This document shows positions 1,114 through 14,668 of a stretch of 64,000 bases of DNA, one piece after another. How positions within the stretch are numbered: position 1 is the first letter of the stretch; every line of letters starts with the position of its first letter. Made by a program: the position numbers and the translations under genes. The notes below the pieces were generated by a model that made no database searches, had not been told where the DNA came from, and worked only from the letters and a program-made list of their open reading frames with translations. The stretch spans positions 352,001 through 416,000 of the forward strand of contig CAVXJH010000003.1 of assembly GCA_963762115.1 (NCBI GenBank). The letters run 5' to 3'. This DNA is from Candidatus Babeliales bacterium. Its GTDB lineage: Bacteria > Babelota > Babeliae > Babelales > JANWKD01.

Positions 1114-4100
1114 ATGACTGTAGTTAATCATAAAAAAAATATAGCATGGATTATTTTTCTAAGTTTTCTAATACAAAGCATAACTCCATCATTATACGCC
1201 CTTCAAAATATTCAAACGGAAGATTTATACTCTGAAAATGAAGAAATTATAATCGATACTACTATTGCTGAATTTATAGTAACCATTATTGATCTGGCCT
1301 ATTTAAATGACACCTTAGACTTATTACCAAAAAGTTTATTAAAATGTTACGAAAGATTACTCAACAATAACTTATCTCTATCAGTGCTTGACTTGCTTGA
1401 AGCCTTACCAACAATGTTACAATACGCACAACTTTTAGCTGATTTTTCAACAAAAGCTCCAAGACCCCAAACTAACCATGCAATTGCTGGAGGCACAACC
1501 AACTGTAATCTTAATGAAATACTTCTTTTTTTAGAGTCACTTCAAAATAAATTAAGTAATTGTTGCTCAGAAATTCAAAATGATTTCAATCAAACATGGA
1601 CAATTTTAGCTGATATTCGTGCCAATATAGGATCAACAACAGCTATTGTTGATTTATCACCAGTATTCACCGCATTAAATGCTTGCTGCACTAACATTAA
1701 CTCCGAATTCCAACAAACGTGGTCTATACTTAATGCTGATTTCAATGGAACTTTCTCAAGCATTGCCGCAATCACCACAAGTAATTTCTCCTATAGCGTT
1801 ATCACTGATCTCAAAGCAACACTTTCAACTGACTTCAATCAAACATGGACAATTTTAAGCGCAGGATTTAATGGCACTTTCAGTGCACTCAATGCATGTT
1901 GCACCAACATCAATTCTGAATTTCAACAAACATGGTCAATACTTAACGCTGATTTTAACGGCACGTTCTCAAGCATCGCCGCAATCGCCACAAGTAACTT
2001 TTCCTATAGCGTCATCAGTGATCTCAAAGCAACACTTTCAACTGACTTCAATCAAACATGGACAATCTTAGGCGCAGGATTTAATGGAACTTATAGTGCA
2101 CTCAATGCATGTTGCACTAACATCAATTCTGAATTCCAACAAACATGGTCAATACTCGCCAGTGGCTTCAATGGCACTTTCAGCGCAATTAATAACATTA
2201 ACACTGAAGCAAATGGAACCTTCTCAGCAGTTGCTGCTGGATTCAATGGAACTTTCAGTGCACTTAATGCATGTTGCAACAACATCAATTCTGAATTCCA
2301 ACAAACATGGTCAATTCTAGGCGCTGGTTTCAATGGCACTTTCAGCGCAATTAATAACATTAACACCGAAGCAAATGGAACCTTCTCAGTAGTTGCTGCT
2401 GGATTCAATGGAACTTATAGTGCACTCAATGCATGTTGCAACAACATCAATTCTGAGTTCCAACAAACATGGTCGATCTTGGGCGCTGGTTTCAATGGCA
2501 CTTTCAGCGCAATTAATAACATTAACACTGAAGCAAATGGAACTTTTTCAGCAGTTGCTGCAGGATTCAATGGAACTTTTAGTGCACTCAATGCATGTTG
2601 CAACAACATCAATTCTGAGTTCCAACAAACGTGGTCAATTCTAGGCGCTGGTTTCAACGGCACCTTCTCGGCTATCAATACTATTAACACCGAAGCAAAT
2701 GGAACTTTCTCAGCAGTTGCTGCAGGATTTAATGGAACTTTCAGTGCACTCAATGCATGTTGCAACAACATCAATTCTGAATTCCAACAAACATGGTCAA
2801 TTCTAGGCGCTGGTTTCAATGGCACTTTCAGCGCAATTAACAACATTAACACTGAAGCAAATGGAACTTTCTCAGCAATTGCTGATTTAAAAAATACTAT
2901 GACTAATGATTTTGCTCAGACGTGGACGATCTTAGGAGCAGGATTTAATGGCACTTTTAGTGCACTTGATGCATGTTGCACCAACATCAATTCTGAGTTT
3001 CAACAAACATGGTCAATTCTAGGCGCTGGTTTCAACGGAACTTTCAGTGCAATTAACAACATTAACACTGAAGCAAATGGAACTTTCTCAGCAATTGCTG
3101 ATCTGAAAAATACTATGACTAATGATTTTGCCCAGACGTGGACAATCTTGGGAGCAGGATTTAATGGAACTTTTAGTGCAATTGCAGAATTAGATGCTGA
3201 TTTATCGGGTACATTCTCAGCAGTTGCTGCAGGTTTTAATGGCACTTTCAGTGCACTCAATGCATGCTGCACCAACATCAATTCTGAGTTCCAACAAACC
3301 TGGTCGATCTTGGCAGCTGGCTTCAATGGAACTTTCTCAGTTATCAATACTATTAACACTGAAGCAAATGGAACCTTCTCAGCAATTGCCGATTTAAAAA
3401 ACACTATGACTAATGATTTTGCTCAAACATGGACAATCTTAGGCGCAGGATTCAATGGCACTTTCAGTGCAATTGCAGAATTAGATGCTGATTTATCGGA
3501 TACATTCTCAGCAGTTGCTGCAGGTTTTAATGGAACTTTTAGTGCACTTAATGCGTGTTGCACTAATATCAATTCTGAATTCCAACAAACCTGGTCGATC
3601 TTGGCAGCTGGCTTCAATGGAACTTTCTCAGTTATCAATACTATTAACACTGAAGCAAATGGAACTTTCTCCGCAATTGCTGATCTGAAAAACACTATGA
3701 CTAATGATTTTGCTCAAACGTGGACAATATTAGGAGCAGGATTCAATGGCACTTTTAGTGCACTCGATGCGTGTTGCACCAACATCAATTCTGAGTTTCA
3801 ACAAACATGGTCAATACTCGCCAGCGGCTTCAATGGCACCTTCTCAGTTATCAATACTATTAATACTGAAGCAAATGGAACCTTCTCAGCAATTGCCGAT
3901 TTAAAAAACACTATGACTAATAATTTTGCTCAAACATGGACAATCTTAGGCGCAGGATTCAATGGCACTTTCAGTGCAATTGCAGAATTAGATGCTGATT
4001 TATCGGGTACATTCTCAGCAGTTGCTGCAGGTTTTAATGGAACTTTTAGTGCACTTAATGCGTGTTGCACTAATATCAATTCTGAATTCCAACAAACCTG

Positions 4101-6888
4101 GTCAATTCTAGGCGCTGGTTTCAACGGCACTTTCAGTGCAATTAACAACATTAACACTGAAGCAAATGGAACTTTCTCCGCAATTGCTGATCTGAAAAAC
4201 ACTATGACTAATGATTTTGCTCAAACGTGGACAATATTAGGAGCAGGGTTCAATGGCACTTTTAGTGCACTCGATGCGTGTTGCACCAACATCAATTCTG
4301 AGTTCCAACAAACCTGGTCGATCTTGGGTGCAGGCTTCAATGGCACTTTCTCAGTTATCAATACTATTAACACTGAAGCAAATGGAACCTTCTCAGCAAT
4401 TGCTGATCTGAAAAATACTATGACTAATGATTTTGCCCAGACGTGGACAATCTTAGGAGCAGGATTTAATGGAACTTTTAGTGCACTTAATGCGTGTTGC
4501 ACTAATATCAATTCTGAATTCCAACAAACATGGTCGATCTTGGCAGCTGGCTTCAATGGAACTTTCTCAGTTATCAATACTATTAACACTGAAGCAAATG
4601 GAACTTTCTCCGCTATTGCAGATCTAAAAAATACTATGACTAATGATTTTGCTCAGACGTGGACAATATTAGGAGCAGGGTTCAATGGCACTTTCAGTGC
4701 ACTCAATGCATGTTGCACCAACATCAATTCTGAATTTCAACAAACATGGTCAATACTTAATGCTGACTTCAATGGTACGTTCTCAAGCATTGCCGCAATA
4801 AGTTCAACTAATTTTTCTTACAGTGTTATCACCGATCTCAAAGCAACACTTTCGACAGATTTTAATCAAACATGGACAATCTTAGGTGCAGGTTTTAATG
4901 GCACCTTCAGTGCAATTGCAGAATTAGATGCTGATTTATCGGGTACTTTCTCAGCAATTGCTGCAGGATTCAATGGTACCTTCAGCGCACTTGATAGTGA
5001 CACTAACAATATTATATTTGTTATAAATGGCTGCTGTAATTTCATTGCTAGTGAGTTCCAACAAACGTGGACCATTCTTGCCGATGGATTTAATGATACC
5101 TTTACCAGTATTTTTAATATAGACAATGAATTTCAACAAACATGGACAATCTTAGGTGCAGGTTTTAATGGAACCTTCAGTGCAATTGCAGAATTAGATG
5201 CCGATTTATCTGGTACTTTCAGTGCACTCAATGCATGTTGCACCAATATCAATTCTGAATTCCAACAAACCTGGACTATTCTTGCTGCAGGGTTTGAACA
5301 AACATGGACAATTCTTGATGCTGATTTTAATGGAACCTTCTCAACCTTGTATGCATTAACTTTATGTGGCGGAACACCAATTGTAGCTTCAACAACAATA
5401 TCTCTTCCCGGTTATTATTGTCTTGCCAATGATATCACGGGGAATATTGTTATTAGTAGCGATAATGTTGTTTTAGATTTAAATAACCATACCATTACCA
5501 ATAATTCTAGTATTTCAATAGACATACAAGGAGGCACTAACAGAACAATAAAAAATGGACGAATTGATGGTATCGGTAGCAGTTCAACGGCAATTCAAAT
5601 TGAAAGAGGCTGCAATCAAACACAAATAGAAAATATTTTTGTTTCGGGAAATAATTCATCAAGTAGTACCGGTATAGGATTTGCACAAACCACTACCAAC
5701 TTAACAATTAACGATGTAACAATGCAAAACTTGACCTTTGGTATAAATTTACCGCAACAATCATCTTTAAGTGAAAAAATCATTCTTAACAATATCAATC
5801 TCGATACCATAACCGATACAGGGATAGTAATAGGATCCAGCATAAATGTAATAATAAAAAATATTATAATAGACGACTGTAATATTGGCATTAATTTACC
5901 AAAATGTACCGGATTACGACTTTCAAAAGCCTTGATTACTACGTCAACACAAGGAATTATCGCCAATAATGGAACGGGTTATACATTGAAAAGTATTGAA
6001 ATTACTGGGGCACCATCGCCTATAAGTTCATCAATGCAACCTTTCACCCTAACATCTCTTAGTAATGCAACTATTGATCATTGTAAAACATATAGTACAG
6101 CCGGTATTGCGTTTAATATCACCACCTGCAACAACATTCAATTTACTAGTTGCTTTATCGACGATTGTTATGGTACAGGAAGCTCAAGTATAGCCTACGG
6201 ATTCTTCATGCAAACAAATTGTTCAGATTTATACTTTAAAAATTGTGTTGTTCAAAACGTTATTGAAGTACGTGCTAATAATGTCGCTGCAGGATTTTAT
6301 ACAAATGATAGCACAAGTACTAATCTTGAAATTTTAGACTGTTCTATAAATAACATTACCGCTGCAGCCTCTAATTCTGGCCCTGGCTATGGTTATTTAA
6401 TTAATGGCAATAATATTTCTATAACAAATTGCAATGCACAAAAAATTACCAGTACTATATCATATGGATTTTCAACAACCGGTACCAATATAATGTTAAC
6501 TAATTGCTTCGTACAAACGTGTTCTACCACCGTTGCTTTAAGTACTGGCTCAGGAATTTTATTAAATACAAATGGAGGTTCAGGCTTATTATCAGCTATA
6601 AACTGTCAAAGTAGTAATAATACTAATTGCGTTGGTTTTGCAACCGATAGTGCTAATATCACTTTAGGAAATTGTGTTGCAGTCAATAATACTGGTAATA
6701 CCTTCTGTAAGGGCTTCAATTCCAGTCCAACAGCAAAACTATTTTGGTGTTTTGCAAGCGGCAATACAGCAAACTATACAAGCGGTGTTACCGCAATCAA
6801 TAATGTCACCGATCAAGTTATTTCTTACACAGGCCTAACAGTTACCGTTAAAACTGGTCCTTATGCAGGAAGTAATTTATTTATTTAA
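1114..6888 (+). CDS. Giant secreted repeat protein (1924 aa): signal peptide, long modular repeat stalk, C-terminal right-handed beta-helix (pectin-lyase-like) domain
   Basis: Hydrophobic N-terminus; repeats ACCxNINSEFQQTWSILGAGFNGTFSA; C-terminal TISLPGYYCLANDI...VVLDLNNHTI followed by Asn/Ile/Gly-rich beta-helix-like repeats. Confidence 0.85.
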   Translation: MTVVNHKKNIAWIIFLSFLIQSITPSLYALQNIQTEDLYSENEEIIIDTTIAEFIVTIIDLAYLNDTLDLLPKSLLKCYERLLNNNLSLSVLDLLEALPTMLQYAQLLADFSTKAPRPQTNHAIAGGTTNCNLNEILLFLESLQNKLSNCCSEIQNDFNQTWTILADIRANIGSTTAIVDLSPVFTALNACCTNINSEFQQTWSILNADFNGTFSSIAAITTSNFSYSVITDLKATLSTDFNQTWTILSAGFNGTFSALNACCTNINSEFQQTWSILNADFNGTFSSIAAIATSNFSYSVISDLKATLSTDFNQTWTILGAGFNGTYSALNACCTNINSEFQQTWSILASGFNGTFSAINNINTEANGTFSAVAAGFNGTFSALNACCNNINSEFQQTWSILGAGFNGTFSAINNINTEANGTFSVVAAGFNGTYSALNACCNNINSEFQQTWSILGAGFNGTFSAINNINTEANGTFSAVAAGFNGTFSALNACCNNINSEFQQTWSILGAGFNGTFSAINTINTEANGTFSAVAAGFNGTFSALNACCNNINSEFQQTWSILGAGFNGTFSAINNINTEANGTFSAIADLKNTMTNDFAQTWTILGAGFNGTFSALDACCTNINSEFQQTWSILGAGFNGTFSAINNINTEANGTFSAIADLKNTMTNDFAQTWTILGAGFNGTFSAIAELDADLSGTFSAVAAGFNGTFSALNACCTNINSEFQQTWSILAAGFNGTFSVINTINTEANGTFSAIADLKNTMTNDFAQTWTILGAGFNGTFSAIAELDADLSDTFSAVAAGFNGTFSALNACCTNINSEFQQTWSILAAGFNGTFSVINTINTEANGTFSAIADLKNTMTNDFAQTWTILGAGFNGTFSALDACCTNINSEFQQTWSILASGFNGTFSVINTINTEANGTFSAIADLKNTMTNNFAQTWTILGAGFNGTFSAIAELDADLSGTFSAVAAGFNGTFSALNACCTNINSEFQQTWSILGAGFNGTFSAINNINTEANGTFSAIADLKNTMTNDFAQTWTILGAGFNGTFSALDACCTNINSEFQQTWSILGAGFNGTFSVINTINTEANGTFSAIADLKNTMTNDFAQTWTILGAGFNGTFSALNACCTNINSEFQQTWSILAAGFNGTFSVINTINTEANGTFSAIADLKNTMTNDFAQTWTILGAGFNGTFSALNACCTNINSEFQQTWSILNADFNGTFSSIAAISSTNFSYSVITDLKATLSTDFNQTWTILGAGFNGTFSAIAELDADLSGTFSAIAAGFNGTFSALDSDTNNIIFVINGCCNFIASEFQQTWTILADGFNDTFTSIFNIDNEFQQTWTILGAGFNGTFSAIAELDADLSGTFSALNACCTNINSEFQQTWTILAAGFEQTWTILDADFNGTFSTLYALTLCGGTPIVASTTISLPGYYCLANDITGNIVISSDNVVLDLNNHTITNNSSISIDIQGGTNRTIKNGRIDGIGSSSTAIQIERGCNQTQIENIFVSGNNSSSSTGIGFAQTTTNLTINDVTMQNLTFGINLPQQSSLSEKIILNNINLDTITDTGIVIGSSINVIIKNIIIDDCNIGINLPKCTGLRLSKALITTSTQGIIANNGTGYTLKSIEITGAPSPISSSMQPFTLTSLSNATIDHCKTYSTAGIAFNITTCNNIQFTSCFIDDCYGTGSSSIAYGFFMQTNCSDLYFKNCVVQNVIEVRANNVAAGFYTNDSTSTNLEILDCSINNITAAASNSGPGYGYLINGNNISITNCNAQKITSTISYGFSTTGTNIMLTNCFVQTCSTTVALSTGSGILLNTNGGSGLLSAINCQSSNNTNCVGFATDSANITLGNCVAVNNTGNTFCKGFNSSPTAKLFWCFASGNTANYTSGVTAINNVTDQVISYTGLTVTVKTGPYAGSNLFI
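1672..5345 (+). repeat. Intragenic mosaic tandem repeat of 33/42/87/126-bp modules
   Basis: Recurring DNA units such as aattctgaattccaacaaacatggtc and aatggaactttc/aatggcactttc, in frame, with synonymous variation. Confidence 0.95.
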
Positions 6889-8947: not shown

Positions 8948-9307
8948 ATGGTTGCAAAGAGAAAAAAAGCTGCTCCAAAGAAGAGAACAGTAAAAAGAGC
9001 TGCTCCTAAACGTAAAGTAGCTAAAAAGGCTGCTCCTAAGAGAAAAACAGTTAAAAGAGCTGCCCCAAAACGTAAAGTCGTAAAAAGAGCTGCTCCTAAA
9101 CGTAAAGTAGCTAAAAAGGCTGCTCCTAAGAGAAAAACAGTTAAAAGAGCTGCCCCAAAACGTAAAGCCGTTAAAAGAGCTGCTCCTAAACGTAAAGTAG
9201 CTAAAAAGGCTGCTCCTAAGAGAAAAACAGTTAAAAGAGCTGCTCCTAAAAGACGTGTAGCTAAAAAAGTAGCTGTTACCACCCACATTGTCGGCGCTAC
9301 TCACTAA
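8948..9307 (+). CDS. Histone H1-like Lys/Arg/Ala/Pro repeat nucleoid protein (Hc2/HctB-like)
   Basis: 10-aa repeats KRKVAKKAAP/KRKTVKRAAP; strong SD aaggag before ATG; 90-bp DNA period at 9001, 9091, 9181. Confidence 0.85.
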   Translation: MVAKRKKAAPKKRTVKRAAPKRKVAKKAAPKRKTVKRAAPKRKVVKRAAPKRKVAKKAAPKRKTVKRAAPKRKAVKRAAPKRKVAKKAAPKRKTVKRAAPKRRVAKKVAVTTHIVGATH

Positions 9308-9318
9308 ATCTCAAATAT

Positions 9319-9367
9319 AATAAAATAAAGGGCGATATAATTTAATTATGTTGCCTTTTATTTTATT
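9319..9367. terminator. Bidirectional terminator-like hairpin between convergent genes
   Basis: aataaaataaagggcgatataa / ttatgttgccttttattttatt inverted repeat. Confidence 0.65.
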
Positions 9368-10040
9368 AACGCATTTTTTTAACCCCTTTTCTTATACAAA
9401 GATCAAATACTGGGCACCGAGAACAAAATGGTGCAACAGGAACACAAATATTCTGTCCCCACATTACCAATAATTTGTTATATTCTATCCAAAATTCTGG
9501 TGGCAGAATTTTCATTAATTCTTTTTCAGTTTCTTCTGGCGTTTTTGTTTCAACTAATCCTAAACGATTAGAAATGCGATGAACATGAATATCAACGCAC
9601 AAAGCAGGAATGCCAAAAGCAACGCCAAGCACTAAATTTGCCGTCTTAGGACCAACTCCTTTGATAAACATTAATTGTTCTTTTGTATGCGGTACTTCAC
9701 CATTAAACTGTTCTATCAATTGCCTACTCACTTCTTTGAGCGTTTGAGCTTTCTTTTTATAAAAACCAATTGAATGAATTTCATGTTCAAGGTCTTCGAG
9801 GGGGAAATCAACAAATTGTTGTGGTGTTCTTGCTTTTTTGAATAACAACTTGCACACAGGATAGGTCATGACATCACGAGCTCGCAGACTCAATAAACAA
9901 CTTATTAAAATAAGAAAAGGATCATTATTATATTCTTTTGCTATAAGTTCGCTCATGGGCTGCATCATTCCTTGCGTTGCTGTTCGCAAAATCTCAATAA
10001 TAGCGAGCGCTCGTTGTGTTTTTTTGTTTATAATCATCAT
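9366..10040 (-). CDS. nth: Endonuclease III
   Basis: HhH motif IKGVGPKTA, VDIHVHRISNRLG, C-terminal 4Fe-4S Cys cluster CVPVAPFCSRCPVFDLC. Confidence 0.95.
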   Translation of the reverse strand: MMIINKKTQRALAIIEILRTATQGMMQPMSELIAKEYNNDPFLILISCLLSLRARDVMTYPVCKLLFKKARTPQQFVDFPLEDLEHEIHSIGFYKKKAQTLKEVSRQLIEQFNGEVPHTKEQLMFIKGVGPKTANLVLGVAFGIPALCVDIHVHRISNRLGLVETKTPEETEKELMKILPPEFWIEYNKLLVMWGQNICVPVAPFCSRCPVFDLCIRKGVKKMR

Positions 10041-10108: not shown

Positions 10109-10669
10109 TCATTTCGATTCTGCAAATAATTGACTCTCAATTGATCTATTATGTTCATCAATAATTTCTCTTTTTGTTTCTTCAATATTTTGCAGTATAC
10201 AGTTTCTTAAGACATTAAGAAGATTTAATATATTTATAAAGTCCTGACAGGACAAAGGCTCAAAAAGAGCTTGATTAATTTTAATATCAAGAGCCTTACC
10301 AGAATTATTATCAATAATCATGAATACTTTGACAGGATCATATTCTGTTTTTTCAGTATGAGCAACATGTTTATTTCTTAATTCTATTAATTTTTTATGT
10401 AAATCCTTTTGCTCATTGCTTACATCCTTTAAATCAATGAAAGATAAAACTGCTTCACGATTGTCTTTTGAAAAAAGCTTTCTATAAATAATAATAATTC
10501 CATGATAACCATGAAAATGTTTACAATTACTAGTCCTACACTTTTCCATTTCAAAATTAACTAGGTCAATAAGGGTTAAAAGGTCTCCATCAATGCGAAT
10601 TAAACCCTTTAATTTTTTAACATCATCACTTTCAACTGTAATGAGAGAACATCTGGTATTATCATTCAT
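10109..10669 (-). CDS. Hypothetical protein with HEPN-like RNase motif
   Basis: All-helical-looking 186 aa with LRNKHVAH (R-x5-H), preceded by IIYRKLF. Confidence 0.6.
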   Translation of the reverse strand: MNDNTRCSLITVESDDVKKLKGLIRIDGDLLTLIDLVNFEMEKCRTSNCKHFHGYHGIIIIYRKLFSKDNREAVLSFIDLKDVSNEQKDLHKKLIELRNKHVAHTEKTEYDPVKVFMIIDNNSGKALDIKINQALFEPLSCQDFINILNLLNVLRNCILQNIEETKREIIDEHNRSIESQLFAESK

Positions 10670-10920
10670 AAATTACAATTATCCTAAAATAATTTTATAT
10701 TTTTTCTTTAAGTAATGAACAAGTTAAATTATAATTATAGTATTCTAACTTTTTATTAATTCCTTTTTTTACTATCAAGTTCTTTTCAATTTTTCATAGA
10801 CTCAAAAATACTTCTATAATTATTATTTCTTATTATTTTTACATATTTTTTCATTAAATTTTTCCTCTTTAAAAAGTGATTATTATTTTTTTTGTTTCTA
10901 ACATTACCATATAAAAAGTA

Positions 10921-13506
10921 CTAATTTCCAAGCCAATCTTTCCATCCTCCCCATCCTTTGTTAGCATATACGCTATTTGGTGCAATAGGGATATCGATAG
11001 GACAAAAACCAGTTTTAGTCCATGTAAACCAATCTTCTTTACCCCTAAGAGAAAGACTTCTAGCAAAAGCTCTGGCTTCTTCAAACCCTTTAAATTCTTT
11101 TTTAAAACTCGCAATATTTCCGGTTCCTAAAAAATCACCCCAACCACACCATTCTTCAGCATAAACACTCCTAGGGTCGGCTGGAATATCGCTAGGTCGT
11201 TCTTCGCTTTTTGCAAAATTTGTCCAATCATTTTTATTTTTCAGATCAAGCGAATGTGCATATTTTCTTGCTTCAACAAATGTACAAAACTGGCGATTTT
11301 GGTTAGCAATTACATTAGTTCCTAAAAAATCCCCCCAACCTGCCCATCCCTTATTTGCAAAGGTTCTTTCTGGTTTACCTGAAATATCATTTGGCAATTG
11401 ATTATTTTTTTTATATTCACGCCATTCAAATTCATTTTTTAATCCAAGGGATTGCACAAATTTTTTTGTTTCTTCAAAAGAACGGAATTTTTGTTTTTGT
11501 GACGCGATAGTATTTGTACCTAGGAAATCTCCCCAATCTAACCATCCTTTATCTCTATATGCTTTATCTGGAGCTGAAGGAATATTTTTTGGTCTCTGAT
11601 CTGATTGTGCCCATTGAACCCATTCACTCCAGCTTTTTAAACCCAGATTTCTTGCAAAAGCTCTTGCTTCTTCAAATGGAACAAAATTTCGACTCATTTG
11701 AATTGCTTCACGCAGTTTTTCAAAAGTATTAATGTTACAAACACCACTTGTATAGCGAAGTAAAAATTCTAAAGGATTAGTTTTTTGTAAAATATCAAAA
11801 CCAATATCCTCAACAGAGATTCCTTGCATACGCAAAGTTTGACGGGACAACATACCCCATATTTGCTTAGCAACTTCTTCTTTGTGCTCAACAATACCAT
11901 AGCCATCAAGAATTTCAGGAATCATCCTCTTATATTCATCCCAAAGCCGTAAGGTGTCTTCAGCAGCTATTGGATCATTATTAATTATACTGATTAATTG
12001 GTTAGTAACATCTTCAACTAAGGATAATTTTTGAACTTCATCTGGAATTACAACGCTCAACCAATCATTACTTTTTTTAAAATCAACATTATTATTTTCA
12101 TTCTTTTTTTTCTCTAAAGGCATTTTGATTTTTACTGGATTGAAAATATTCTCTAAAATTAATGACGCATAAATTGCCTTGAGATAATCATTAAGATTGT
12201 TTCGAAACATTTCATCATCTTGTTGCTCTAAAGAGAAAGGTAATAGTTGAATAACTTCAATATGGCTTTTATTCGGGGCATCTCTAAAAAGCCGTCCAAT
12301 CATTTGTATTATATCAACCAATGATGATCGAGCGCCTACAATGATAGCACGATCAGCCCAAATCCAATTGGCACCTTCTTTGAACATCCCTAAAGCAATA
12401 ATAACATCTAGAGCTTCGCGGTCTGCTTTTAATCTTGGATCGTTGATAAAGTCCTTTTTTTCAATGCGCTGATTTTCATCAACAAGATCAAGAATTTTAA
12501 AATCTCCATTTTCATTGCTAATAATGTGCAAACCATTCACATTTTTGGAAATGATGCCATTATAAACCTTACTAAATTTATTAATGATATTTTCTACTTC
12601 TTGATATTTGTTTCCCATTGAATATAGAGAATTAGGATGTGGAACATAAATAATATCTTTTGCTTTTCTACTCAATGCTAATAACTCAATTGCTTTTGTA
12701 TAATCTTGACCACAAATCAAAAAATCAAAATTAAAGGATTTAAGATAGATCATTGAATTGAGATATTCATCATAGGGTAAATTAAATCTAATAAATTTAG
12801 ATTCCATAGCAGCAGTGAGCAAAGATCCTCTATCGCCACGAAAAAAAGAAGCTGTCGTAAGCCCAACTTGTAGATGACTTGAAAAATTATTCAAACAATA
12901 TGCAACTAATTCTCCAAGAGCATTGCTTATTACAACGCCTTTAAAAGCTTCATTTTCTAAATTTTTTACATGATGAGCTTCATCGATCCAAATTAAAAGA
13001 TTATTTAACAAATCCAAACGATTATCAAATTTTAATTTTTTATATACAGCAACTAAAGTAGCATGAGTACAAAGAATAACTTTTTCAGCAAAAACATCTG
13101 TAGGATTATTAAGCCAGCTGATCAAATATCTTACTGTGCCATTATGTGATTGATTTTTATTACAAAGATTATGGACAACTTTCCAATCTATTTTTTCTCC
13201 ATTTGGCATCTGGAAATTAGCTTCAGCAAAACCCGATGCTATTATAGTTTGTGGAACAGTAATTATAGCACGTAAAGCACGATCATTTTTCAATTTAAAA
13301 GCAGTTAAGAGACAAATCAACCAAGATTTACCACTTCCCATTGGAGCATTAATGATCATAAAAGGCTTCGTTTGTAACAACTCGAATGCTTTGATTTGCC
13401 AACCACGCATTGCAAAATAGCTGCCAGTCAAATCAGTAGATTGTTCAGCTTCGCTAGTTAAAATTAAATTAAAGCCTGTTTGTTTTAACGGCTCTTGATA
13501 GTCCAT
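10921..13506 (-). CDS. SF2 DEAH helicase/ATPase (YeeB-like) with four C-terminal ~65-aa Trp-rich repeats
   Basis: APMGSGKS, WIDEAHH, TASFFRGD, IALGMFKEG, QMIGRLFRD; repeats F..FEEAR.FA..L.LK...W...P..IP..P...Y...GW..WGDFLG. Confidence 0.85.
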   Translation of the reverse strand: MDYQEPLKQTGFNLILTSEAEQSTDLTGSYFAMRGWQIKAFELLQTKPFMIINAPMGSGKSWLICLLTAFKLKNDRALRAIITVPQTIIASGFAEANFQMPNGEKIDWKVVHNLCNKNQSHNGTVRYLISWLNNPTDVFAEKVILCTHATLVAVYKKLKFDNRLDLLNNLLIWIDEAHHVKNLENEAFKGVVISNALGELVAYCLNNFSSHLQVGLTTASFFRGDRGSLLTAAMESKFIRFNLPYDEYLNSMIYLKSFNFDFLICGQDYTKAIELLALSRKAKDIIYVPHPNSLYSMGNKYQEVENIINKFSKVYNGIISKNVNGLHIISNENGDFKILDLVDENQRIEKKDFINDPRLKADREALDVIIALGMFKEGANWIWADRAIIVGARSSLVDIIQMIGRLFRDAPNKSHIEVIQLLPFSLEQQDDEMFRNNLNDYLKAIYASLILENIFNPVKIKMPLEKKKNENNNVDFKKSNDWLSVVIPDEVQKLSLVEDVTNQLISIINNDPIAAEDTLRLWDEYKRMIPEILDGYGIVEHKEEVAKQIWGMLSRQTLRMQGISVEDIGFDILQKTNPLEFLLRYTSGVCNINTFEKLREAIQMSRNFVPFEEARAFARNLGLKSWSEWVQWAQSDQRPKNIPSAPDKAYRDKGWLDWGDFLGTNTIASQKQKFRSFEETKKFVQSLGLKNEFEWREYKKNNQLPNDISGKPERTFANKGWAGWGDFLGTNVIANQNRQFCTFVEARKYAHSLDLKNKNDWTNFAKSEERPSDIPADPRSVYAEEWCGWGDFLGTGNIASFKKEFKGFEEARAFARSLSLRGKEDWFTWTKTGFCPIDIPIAPNSVYANKGWGGWKDWLGN

Positions 13507-13732
13507 TTATCTTCTTTCAGTATTTAATTCAATATGAACAATATCTATAATAACAACTTATAAAAACAACAATTCCAATAACACGCAATCAATTATAAAT
13601 TGTAACTATATTTGCTCAAAAAACAAAGAATAAGTTGACCTTAAAAATGAAGCTTATAATCATCTCTTTTCTTGCGCAAAAAGTTGTAATACTTTATTCT
13701 GCTACTAGGGTAAAATTCTAGGAAAACAAACT

Positions 13733-14668
13733 ATGACAATTGCAGATTTTTTAGATAAAAAACAAGAATTTCTCATTCATATTGATGTTGAAAAAAATCT
13801 TTCGGAAAACACGTACCGTGCTTATGAAAGCGATTTAGATCAATTTTATATATTTTGGCAAAATATAAATAGTCAGGCAACTGAAGAAATTCCCTTAAGA
13901 AGAGCTCTCGAGCGTTTTTTGATTATGTTGTATCATAAAAAAATTGATAAAAGCACCATTGCTCGAAAACTTTCTTGTTTTCAATCTTTTGAAAAATATA
14001 TTCTCAGCAGAGGCGTCGAACTACGTTTAAAATTAACGCGTCCACGTTTAGATAAAAAATTACCAATATATCTCAGTATTGATGAAATAATTCATTTATT
14101 AGACACCATAAAAAATGAAGATCTGCCAACAAAAAATCCCTTACGAGACAAATCAATCTTCGAATTATTATATGCAACAGGAGTGCGTTGTTCTGAATTA
14201 GTAAATATCAAAATCGATGAAATTGATTTTGAACAAAAAATAATTAGAATCCTTGGAAAAGGTAAAAAGGAACGGATTGTTCTTTTTGGCAGCAAAGCAC
14301 TAAGAAAATTGCAAGAATATATTGAATTTGAACGTCAAGGAATCAGTGAGTGTCCTTATCTTTTTCTTAATAATCGCAACGAACAATTAACAAGTAGGTC
14401 AGTTCAAAGAATTTTTGAGATGTTTAGAAAATTTTTAAAAATTGAACGAAAAATCACTCCTCATAAAATTAGACATTCTTTTGCAACACATCTCTTAACC
14501 CAAGGTGCCGACTTGCGTATTGTTCAAGAACTTCTTGGCCATAAAACTATAGCAAGCACTGAAAAATATACCCATTTAACCGTTGTAGAGCTGACAGAAT
14601 TATGTGATACCCTTCATCCAATACACAACTTTGAAAAAATAAGGGACAAAAAGAATGAAGGCTCCTGA
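13733..14668 (+). CDS. xerC: Tyrosine recombinase XerC/XerD family
   Basis: YATGVRCSEL, GKGKKER, HKIRHSFATHLL, VQELLGH, TEKYTH; XerC versus XerD is not certain. Confidence 0.85.
   Translation: MTIADFLDKKQEFLIHIDVEKNLSENTYRAYESDLDQFYIFWQNINSQATEEIPLRRALERFLIMLYHKKIDKSTIARKLSCFQSFEKYILSRGVELRLKLTRPRLDKKLPIYLSIDEIIHLLDTIKNEDLPTKNPLRDKSIFELLYATGVRCSELVNIKIDEIDFEQKIIRILGKGKKERIVLFGSKALRKLQEYIEFERQGISECPYLFLNNRNEQLTSRSVQRIFEMFRKFLKIERKITPHKIRHSFATHLLTQGADLRIVQELLGHKTIASTEKYTHLTVVELTELCDTLHPIHNFEKIRDKKNEGS

Follow-up and report, generated by a model that had tools for sequence, protein, structure and literature searches.

We describe a 3,626-bp insert between the host genes nth and xerC in a 64,000-nucleotide stretch of the genome of a Candidatus Babeliales bacterium (the window; positions 352,001 to 416,000 of contig CAVXJH010000003.1, assembly GCA_963762115.1). 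The insert encodes a YeeB-like helicase with a tryptophan-rich repeat tail and a small protein of probable HEPN type, ORF2. We propose, at a probability of about 0.55, that it carries two stand-alone defence-type genes that are likely independent of each other, a partnerless YeeB-type helicase and a probable solo HEPN RNase. An initial annotation made from the sequence alone had read them as a dedicated sensor-effector module; its coordinates and strands for the two co-oriented genes between nth and xerC hold, and its pairing is not supported: no ORF2-family gene turned up at 70 other helicase loci, and six other genomes that carry an ORF2 relative gave no match for the helicase.

A YeeB-like helicase without its partners

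All five helicase motifs quoted in the initial annotation are present, starting at residues 54, 175, 218, 370 and 401, and the protein matches the Pfam families ResIII and DEAD. Among 90 close homologues a loose Walker A is kept in 89, Walker B in 89 and motif VI in all 90. The assignment to the YeeB family without YeeA or YeeC nearby also stands. The helicase aligns with a plasmid YeeB homologue at 30% identity over 603 residues (E 3e-63; the reference is not B. subtilis YeeB itself), its plasmid matches being 25-29% identical, and the two plasmid helicases inspected sit between a gene for a 920-residue methyltransferase and a GIY-YIG gene. When the YeeA and YeeC proteins of two plasmid operons were used as queries, tblastn gave no match at E<=0.01 in the studied genome (G000), nor any in the 70 related helicase loci, 16 of which end inside the helicase; ORF2 has no GIY-YIG match. 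No nuclease family was detected in the helicase protein, sequence searches of solved structures returned nothing useful for the helicase or ORF2, and phage records gave only distant, partial matches to the helicase or its repeats. Of the defence-system screens suggested at the outset (DefenseFinder or PADLOC), PADLOC was run with a library dating from 2023; together with NCBIfam it gave partial, generic helicase-domain matches (PbeA 29 bits, HamB 11 bits), and PADLOC had none for ORF2.

The fusion to Trp-rich repeats noted earlier is real. The tail consists of four tandem repeats of 57-67 residues (608-672, 673-739, 740-804 and 805-861) with 16 Trp in 254 residues. Pfam INT_rpt (PF14882) matches it at 17.8 bits (E 0.004), below the cut-off of 26.5; 28 of its 30 Atlas matches are INT_rpt-bearing clusters (scores 0.94-0.95), and some helicase homologues carry PF14882 in precomputed tables. 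Such repeats are also fused to unrelated Mrr-type helicases. The tails of the 90 close homologues comprise 44 INT_rpt-like, 14 HA, 1 zinc finger, 23 other and 8 short ones, and tails are thus swapped between repeat types within the family. The tail is expected to bind nucleic acid, with DNA as the predicted ligand. At two loci, L041 and L045, the helicase lies amid several separate open reading frames (ORFs) made only of INT_rpt-like repeats, together with a methyltransferase-fold gene.

The helicase belongs to a clade that takes up 21 of the 47 rows of our tree (Shimodaira-Hasegawa-like approximate likelihood ratio test, 98); its named hosts are Chlamydiota and the others resemble the phylum of G000. 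When loci with at least 900 nucleotides (nt) on both sides of the helicase are compared, a partner gene with an S-adenosylmethionine methyltransferase fold occurs at 0 of 14 clade loci versus 8 of 10 outside the clade. No methyltransferase-fold gene was found in nine whole host genomes of the clade, the control genome (G663, an alphaproteobacterial record) being positive, and the methyltransferase-fold profile A2 matched nothing in the six frames of G000. What follows the helicase varies: at 21 close loci, the first gene downstream belongs to one of 17 clusters.

The sampled helicase pairs are under purifying selection, with ratios of nonsynonymous to synonymous substitution (dN/dS) of 0.07, 0.04, 0.18 and 0.47 and a fifth pair saturated. 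Clade members 45-64% identical keep their motifs and a low dN/dS with the partners absent, which argues against both genes being non-functional cargo, remnants of larger systems kept only through a recent insertion. Both reading frames are moreover intact here, and the ORF2 family retains two invariant histidines, H91 and H104. Consistent with drift are the presence of the insert in 1 of 261 own-phylum genomes, the missing partners, the description of the B. subtilis cluster as a relic (PMC9973331), and the helicase's occurrence in several pieces at two related loci (L011 and L012) and as 479- and 230-residue pieces on one contig of another assembly (P0009 and P0164). There the first 465 residues are identical to the present helicase and the sequence then diverges, through assembly error or decay. 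On balance we regard drift as unlikely.

ORF2, a probable HEPN protein

ORF2 is probably a HEPN protein, and as such would be an RNA-cutting toxin that acts by itself. The initial annotation took LRNKHVAH as a HEPN signature, and this stands in part: R98 and H104 are present, in the form RN-x3-AH after helix 3, but of 1375 windows of 186 residues from long G000 ORFs, 450 (33%) contain a bare R-x4-6-H, and on its own the motif is therefore close to what chance would give. A stricter form, R[NHD]x3-4AH, is found in 9 of the same windows. ORF2 is predicted to fold into a bundle of four helices, and a beta-hairpin follows the motif in the model. The motif lies at the end of predicted helix 3; the fold search gave no clear match, Foldseek returning none at E<=0.001 in PDB or BFVD. 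HEPN_AbiU2 (PF18734) reaches 14 bits on ORF2 against a cut-off of 26.8 and is the top Pfam match of 4 among 30 family members; ORF2 scores 0.94 with an Atlas cluster whose automatic name is AbiU2-like. Alignment by hhalign of the ORF2 family with eight AbiU2 members covered 14 motif columns at a score of 26.5, the maximum of 20 column shuffles being 17.4.

In the family alignment H104 and H91 are invariant (30/30), and position 98 is R in 12, G in 10 and A in 8 members. The close clade of ORF2 has Ala or Gly in place of the motif Arg yet keeps Y62, R71, H91 and H104, and its active site may have been rebuilt. The nucleotidyltransferase antitoxin of HEPN-MNT (type VII) toxin-antitoxin pairs is absent beside ORF2, whose neighbours are nth and the helicase. 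Two single queries found no ORF2 relatives in viral contigs; in plasmids none was found with P0002 or P0146 and one plasmid with P0155.

Do the helicase and ORF2 belong together?

Gene-neighbourhood co-occurrence, named in the initial annotation as a comparison that could overturn the module, came out against the pair. Among 667 ORFs from this locus, the 70 other helicase loci and four synteny loci, the ORF2-family profile matches at this locus only, 16 of the 70 loci being cut off within the helicase. Of the 400 genomes scored in the Chlamydiota search, from which one further genome was left out, 13 have a helicase match and 3 an ORF2 match, with no overlap; in the phylum of G663 (231 genomes) the helicase is found in none of the 3 genomes with an ORF2 match. 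ORF2 relatives stand alone in the six contexts inspected: one solo beside uvrA, a broken copy, three solo in the genomes from the phylum of G663 (one a weak match) and one in a Vibrio plasmid region, with a gene of an abortive-infection family some 5 kb away. The helicase-HEPN pair of this locus therefore looks one-off, which lowers the interest of the locus.

Some ORF2 relatives lie beside DNA-repair genes, namely uvrA (L086, 9800-10405) and xth (L115, 1390-1962), as ORF2 lies beside nth; the neighbour of a further relative in L117 (1207-1899) is presumably a dprA-like gene. The adjacency may be chance.

An alternative is a module with an exchangeable effector, in which the repeats would sense foreign DNA and the helicase would switch on whichever toxic enzyme is adjacent, here ORF2. 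In its favour, one repeat-bounded unit carries both genes. In L017, whose unit is bounded by a duplicated nth end, a classical HEPN gene (PF05168, E 1e-12) different from ORF2 starts 39 nt after the clade helicase, so the helicase may work with whichever effector lies downstream. Elsewhere a family with trypsin-like motifs (our sequence reading; it has no Pfam match) lies beside the helicase in L003, L022/L023 and L035, a TIR gene flanks it in L006, and a same-strand ORF starts -22 to +70 nt from the helicase end at 11 of 21 close loci; HEPN-helicase fusions are known (PMC3710099). Against this reading stand the 251-bp gap of 15% GC between two genes that themselves differ in composition (27% GC in ORF2 versus 33% in the helicase), the lack of an ORF2-family gene near the 70 other helicase loci and the persistence of ORF2 relatives in genomes without the helicase. 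Longer, fused helicase-effector forms were also not found, in what was a weak test, and unrelated effectors under one sensor would require a shared signal, of which none is evident. We consider the exchangeable-effector module possible but doubtful.

Several points tell against our preferred reading of two independent defence-type genes. The two genes share a single repeat-bounded unit and hence came in together. Neither protein is covered as a defence gene by any PADLOC, NCBIfam or Pfam family, and a yeeB deletion in B. subtilis left phage sensitivity unaffected (PMC9973331). The motif arginine is missing from 17 of the 18 closest ORF2 homologues, the profile match to AbiU2 is confined to the 14 motif columns at a probability of 8.7%, and the fold score of ORF2 is tied with those of generic helical bundles. 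The tail is barely basic (K+R 38 versus D+E 33) and has no solved relative; PF14882 is listed among repeat families lacking a known structure in PMC8078820. The ORF2 contexts are few (six), with many contigs short, and the tree was built by a quick search with no bootstrap replicates.

Insertion at the nth start

Comparison of the nth-xerC interval in relatives, one of the checks first suggested, supports a foreign insert. The spacing is 114 bp in G001, a genome of the same genus, and about 530 bp in G003; in G004 the genes stand side by side. In searches of 61 relatives and of 261 own-phylum genomes the helicase matched G000 alone each time, as did the ORF2 profile among the 261. An exact 11-bp direct repeat, overlooked in the initial annotation, brackets the 3,626 bp and includes the nth start codon. 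The sequence beside its right copy matches the region just upstream of the G001 nth start, and the right copy is therefore probably the original nth start. Of 5000 shuffles, 80 produced an exact repeat of at least 11 nt shared by both junction zones; in a wider scan for the longest repeat with 3-kb flanks the 11-bp repeat was not singled out, and it stands out within the junction zones only. Across the right junction (13520-13933) a contig from run X1, which may be the source sample, shows zero differences; the region is represented in this run by eight pieces at a depth of 2-6, with ORF2 and the left junction outside its coverage.

No recombinase gene was found inside the insert, nor a convincing second copy of its ends elsewhere in the genome. 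We rejected xerC as the insert's own integrase: it is a conserved host gene, with an orthologue 59-75% identical in all four same-family genomes. A loose dif-like consensus pattern had many background matches and none at the junctions. Targeting of the tRNA-island kind does not apply here, where there is no tRNA gene; tRNA genes occur at 5 of 35 other loci scanned.

Repeat-bounded cassettes around related helicases

Clade helicases are bounded by repeats of a 62-bp nth 3' end (82%) in L017, of a 47-bp tRNA-Asp 3' half in L022/L023 and of a 199-bp dnaE 3' end (96%) in L036, and none of these units has a recognisable integrase inside. In L017 (5151-9618) and L029 (2078-3155), both own-phylum-like contigs with different downstream genes, the helicase sits at the nth 3' end; both ends of nth have thus received a helicase. 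In L025 the clade helicase is flanked by relatives, 68-69% identical, of a Rep-like and a GIY-YIG gene of L104, an island of G000 (C5, about 149000-164500). That island ends at tRNA-Glu with a large serine recombinase and also holds two Rep-like ORFs (372 and 382 residues; our label), toxin-antitoxin-like genes and a DUF5677 gene.

Such surroundings would suit a selfish role, with the helicase aiding the replication or recombination of its own cassette into host gene ends and ORF2 as passenger or addiction toxin; the integrase-free units and the Rep-like ORF adjoining the L025 helicase, 68% identical to the two in the serine-recombinase island, are in line with it. Repeats of this kind, however, bound only these three independent clade loci among 36 with at least 500 nt on both sides, their targets and lengths vary, and the ends of the present insert lack a convincing second genomic copy. 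G000 itself has many such local repeats around genes unaccompanied by a helicase; its 132 listed pairs, several at gene ends, are not all cassette-like. A selfish role thus seems improbable, and we read repeat-bounded cargo as a way in which the host lineage gains genes, not as a helicase function.

Tandem cassette-like arrays occur in G000 at C6 76728-81446, C3 89917-93864 and elsewhere, with copies of gene 3' ends separating short orphan genes; the same pattern is seen at dnaE in L036 and at nth in L017.

Locus layout and host genome

G000 comprises 1.53 Mb in 7 contigs at about 34% GC and is 95% complete. Babelota (Dependentiae) are protist parasites. The order around the locus is thrS, a histone-like gene, nth, the insert, xerC and mrdA (Table 1). 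The very AT-rich spacer reported initially was confirmed; it holds no minus-strand promoter-like or terminator-like match. Sigma-70-like sites occur at chance (23 found versus 21.1 +/- 4.4 in shuffles), as do terminator counts.

Table 1. Features of the insert and its flanks, in window coordinates.
Feature	Position	Strand	Basis
nth (endonuclease III), intact host gene, left flank	9366-10040	-	family match and synteny
Left copy of 11-bp direct repeat, overlapping nth start codons	10028-10038	-	exact repeat
ORF2, 186 residues, 27% GC, probable stand-alone HEPN-type	10109-10669	-	ORF, family alignment and model
R98-x5-H104 motif, end of predicted helix 3 (85-103)	10358-10378	-	family alignment and model
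Spacer, 251 bp, 15.1% GC	10670-10920		base composition
Helicase/ATPase, YeeB-like superfamily-2, 861 residues, intact	10921-13506	-	ORF and family matches
Four tandem Trp-rich repeats	10924-11685	-	INT_rpt (PF14882)-like
Helicase core, residues 26-603, with Walker A, DEAH, motifs III, V and VI	11698-13431	-	motif alignment
Sigma-70-like site (10/12), inside insert, 86 nt upstream of helicase start	13592-13619	-	motif scan
Right copy of 11-bp direct repeat, likely original nth start	13654-13664	-	exact repeat and G001 match
xerC, host XerC/D-type recombinase, right flank	13733-14668	+	orthologues in relatives

The histone-H1-like repeat protein (8948-9307, plus strand), rich in Lys, Arg and Ala and HC2-like by a weak Pfam match, is encoded at the same place in all three relatives sharing the nth-xerC synteny (G001, G003 and G004). 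Between phoH and thrS lies a gene for a 1924-residue protein with long degenerate repeats (1114-6888, plus strand); the corresponding interval in G001 measures only about 550 bp, which makes the gene a second lineage-specific insert in this neighbourhood.

Proposed mechanism and significance

We propose that the unit may have arrived as a circle and recombined at the 11-bp core through a host function or one supplied in trans. With the methyltransferase partner lost, the helicase tail would take over the gripping of foreign DNA, and the motor would spend ATP to unwind the bound invader DNA or strip proteins from it, blocking invader replication without cutting DNA. ORF2 may form an oligomer that inhibits itself and, as published for HepS, is activated by a component of the invader; once active it would cut RNA and stop the infected cell.

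A bolder and tentative idea, which we think rather unlikely as a whole, concerns a YeeB-derived lineage in bacteria that dwell in protists. Exchangeable DNA-binding tails would have taken the place of the methyltransferase that provided its specificity, and the helicase would now sense foreign DNA without reference to modification, move on cassettes that lack an integrase and trigger an adjacent effector (a HEPN RNase, a protease or another nuclease). We know of no biochemical job assigned to YeeB. A branch that persists under selection without methyltransferase or nuclease, and that swaps tails, offers a one-gene test of the motor's role and of what INT_rpt and HA repeats bind. The locus also points to traffic of defence-type genes among bacteria probably living inside protists, and to a HEPN-like family mostly without its supposed catalytic arginine.

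Comparison with known systems

Cis-mobilizable elements are integrase-less cargo bounded by attachment sites. Like such cargo, the insert lacks a recombinase gene and is flanked by direct repeats derived from the end of a host gene; it differs in having a repeat of just 11 bp, which copies the start of a gene, and no mobilising element was found.

With HEPN_AbiU2 and HepS, ORF2 shares a single helical domain of about 190 residues with RN-x3-AH after helix 3. It differs in falling far below the Pfam cut-off with a motif-limited match, in the mostly missing Arg of its close relatives and in the additional conserved Y62, R71 and H91 of its family. HepS, likened to ORF2 by description and not by sequence, is a solo HEPN defence protein held as a self-inhibited oligomer until an invader component activates it (PMC13043305).

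Loci that combine a methyltransferase-fold gene, a YeeB-like helicase and a repeat tail differ from the present clade, which lacks the partner and has a fused, INT_rpt-like tail; the named hosts of this clade are Chlamydiota, the others being like the phylum of G000. Literature searches, with subscription papers largely outside their scope, found no publication on these loci, on partnerless repeat-tailed YeeB helicases or on the ORF2 family, which the supplements of PMC3710099 may list.

The closest known system is YeeA(DnmA)-YeeB-YeeC, laid out as methyltransferase, helicase and GIY-YIG nuclease genes (PMC2731913). Published tests are split on whether the YeeB cluster stops phage; on the positive side, yeeAB gave phage resistance in Vibrio (10.1101/2021.05.05.442762). 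The present helicase shares the core, 29-30% identical over about 600 residues to the plasmid helicases, but has added a 258-residue repeat tail, lacks YeeA and YeeC both in its genome and across the 70 related loci, and occupies a separate branch of the tree.

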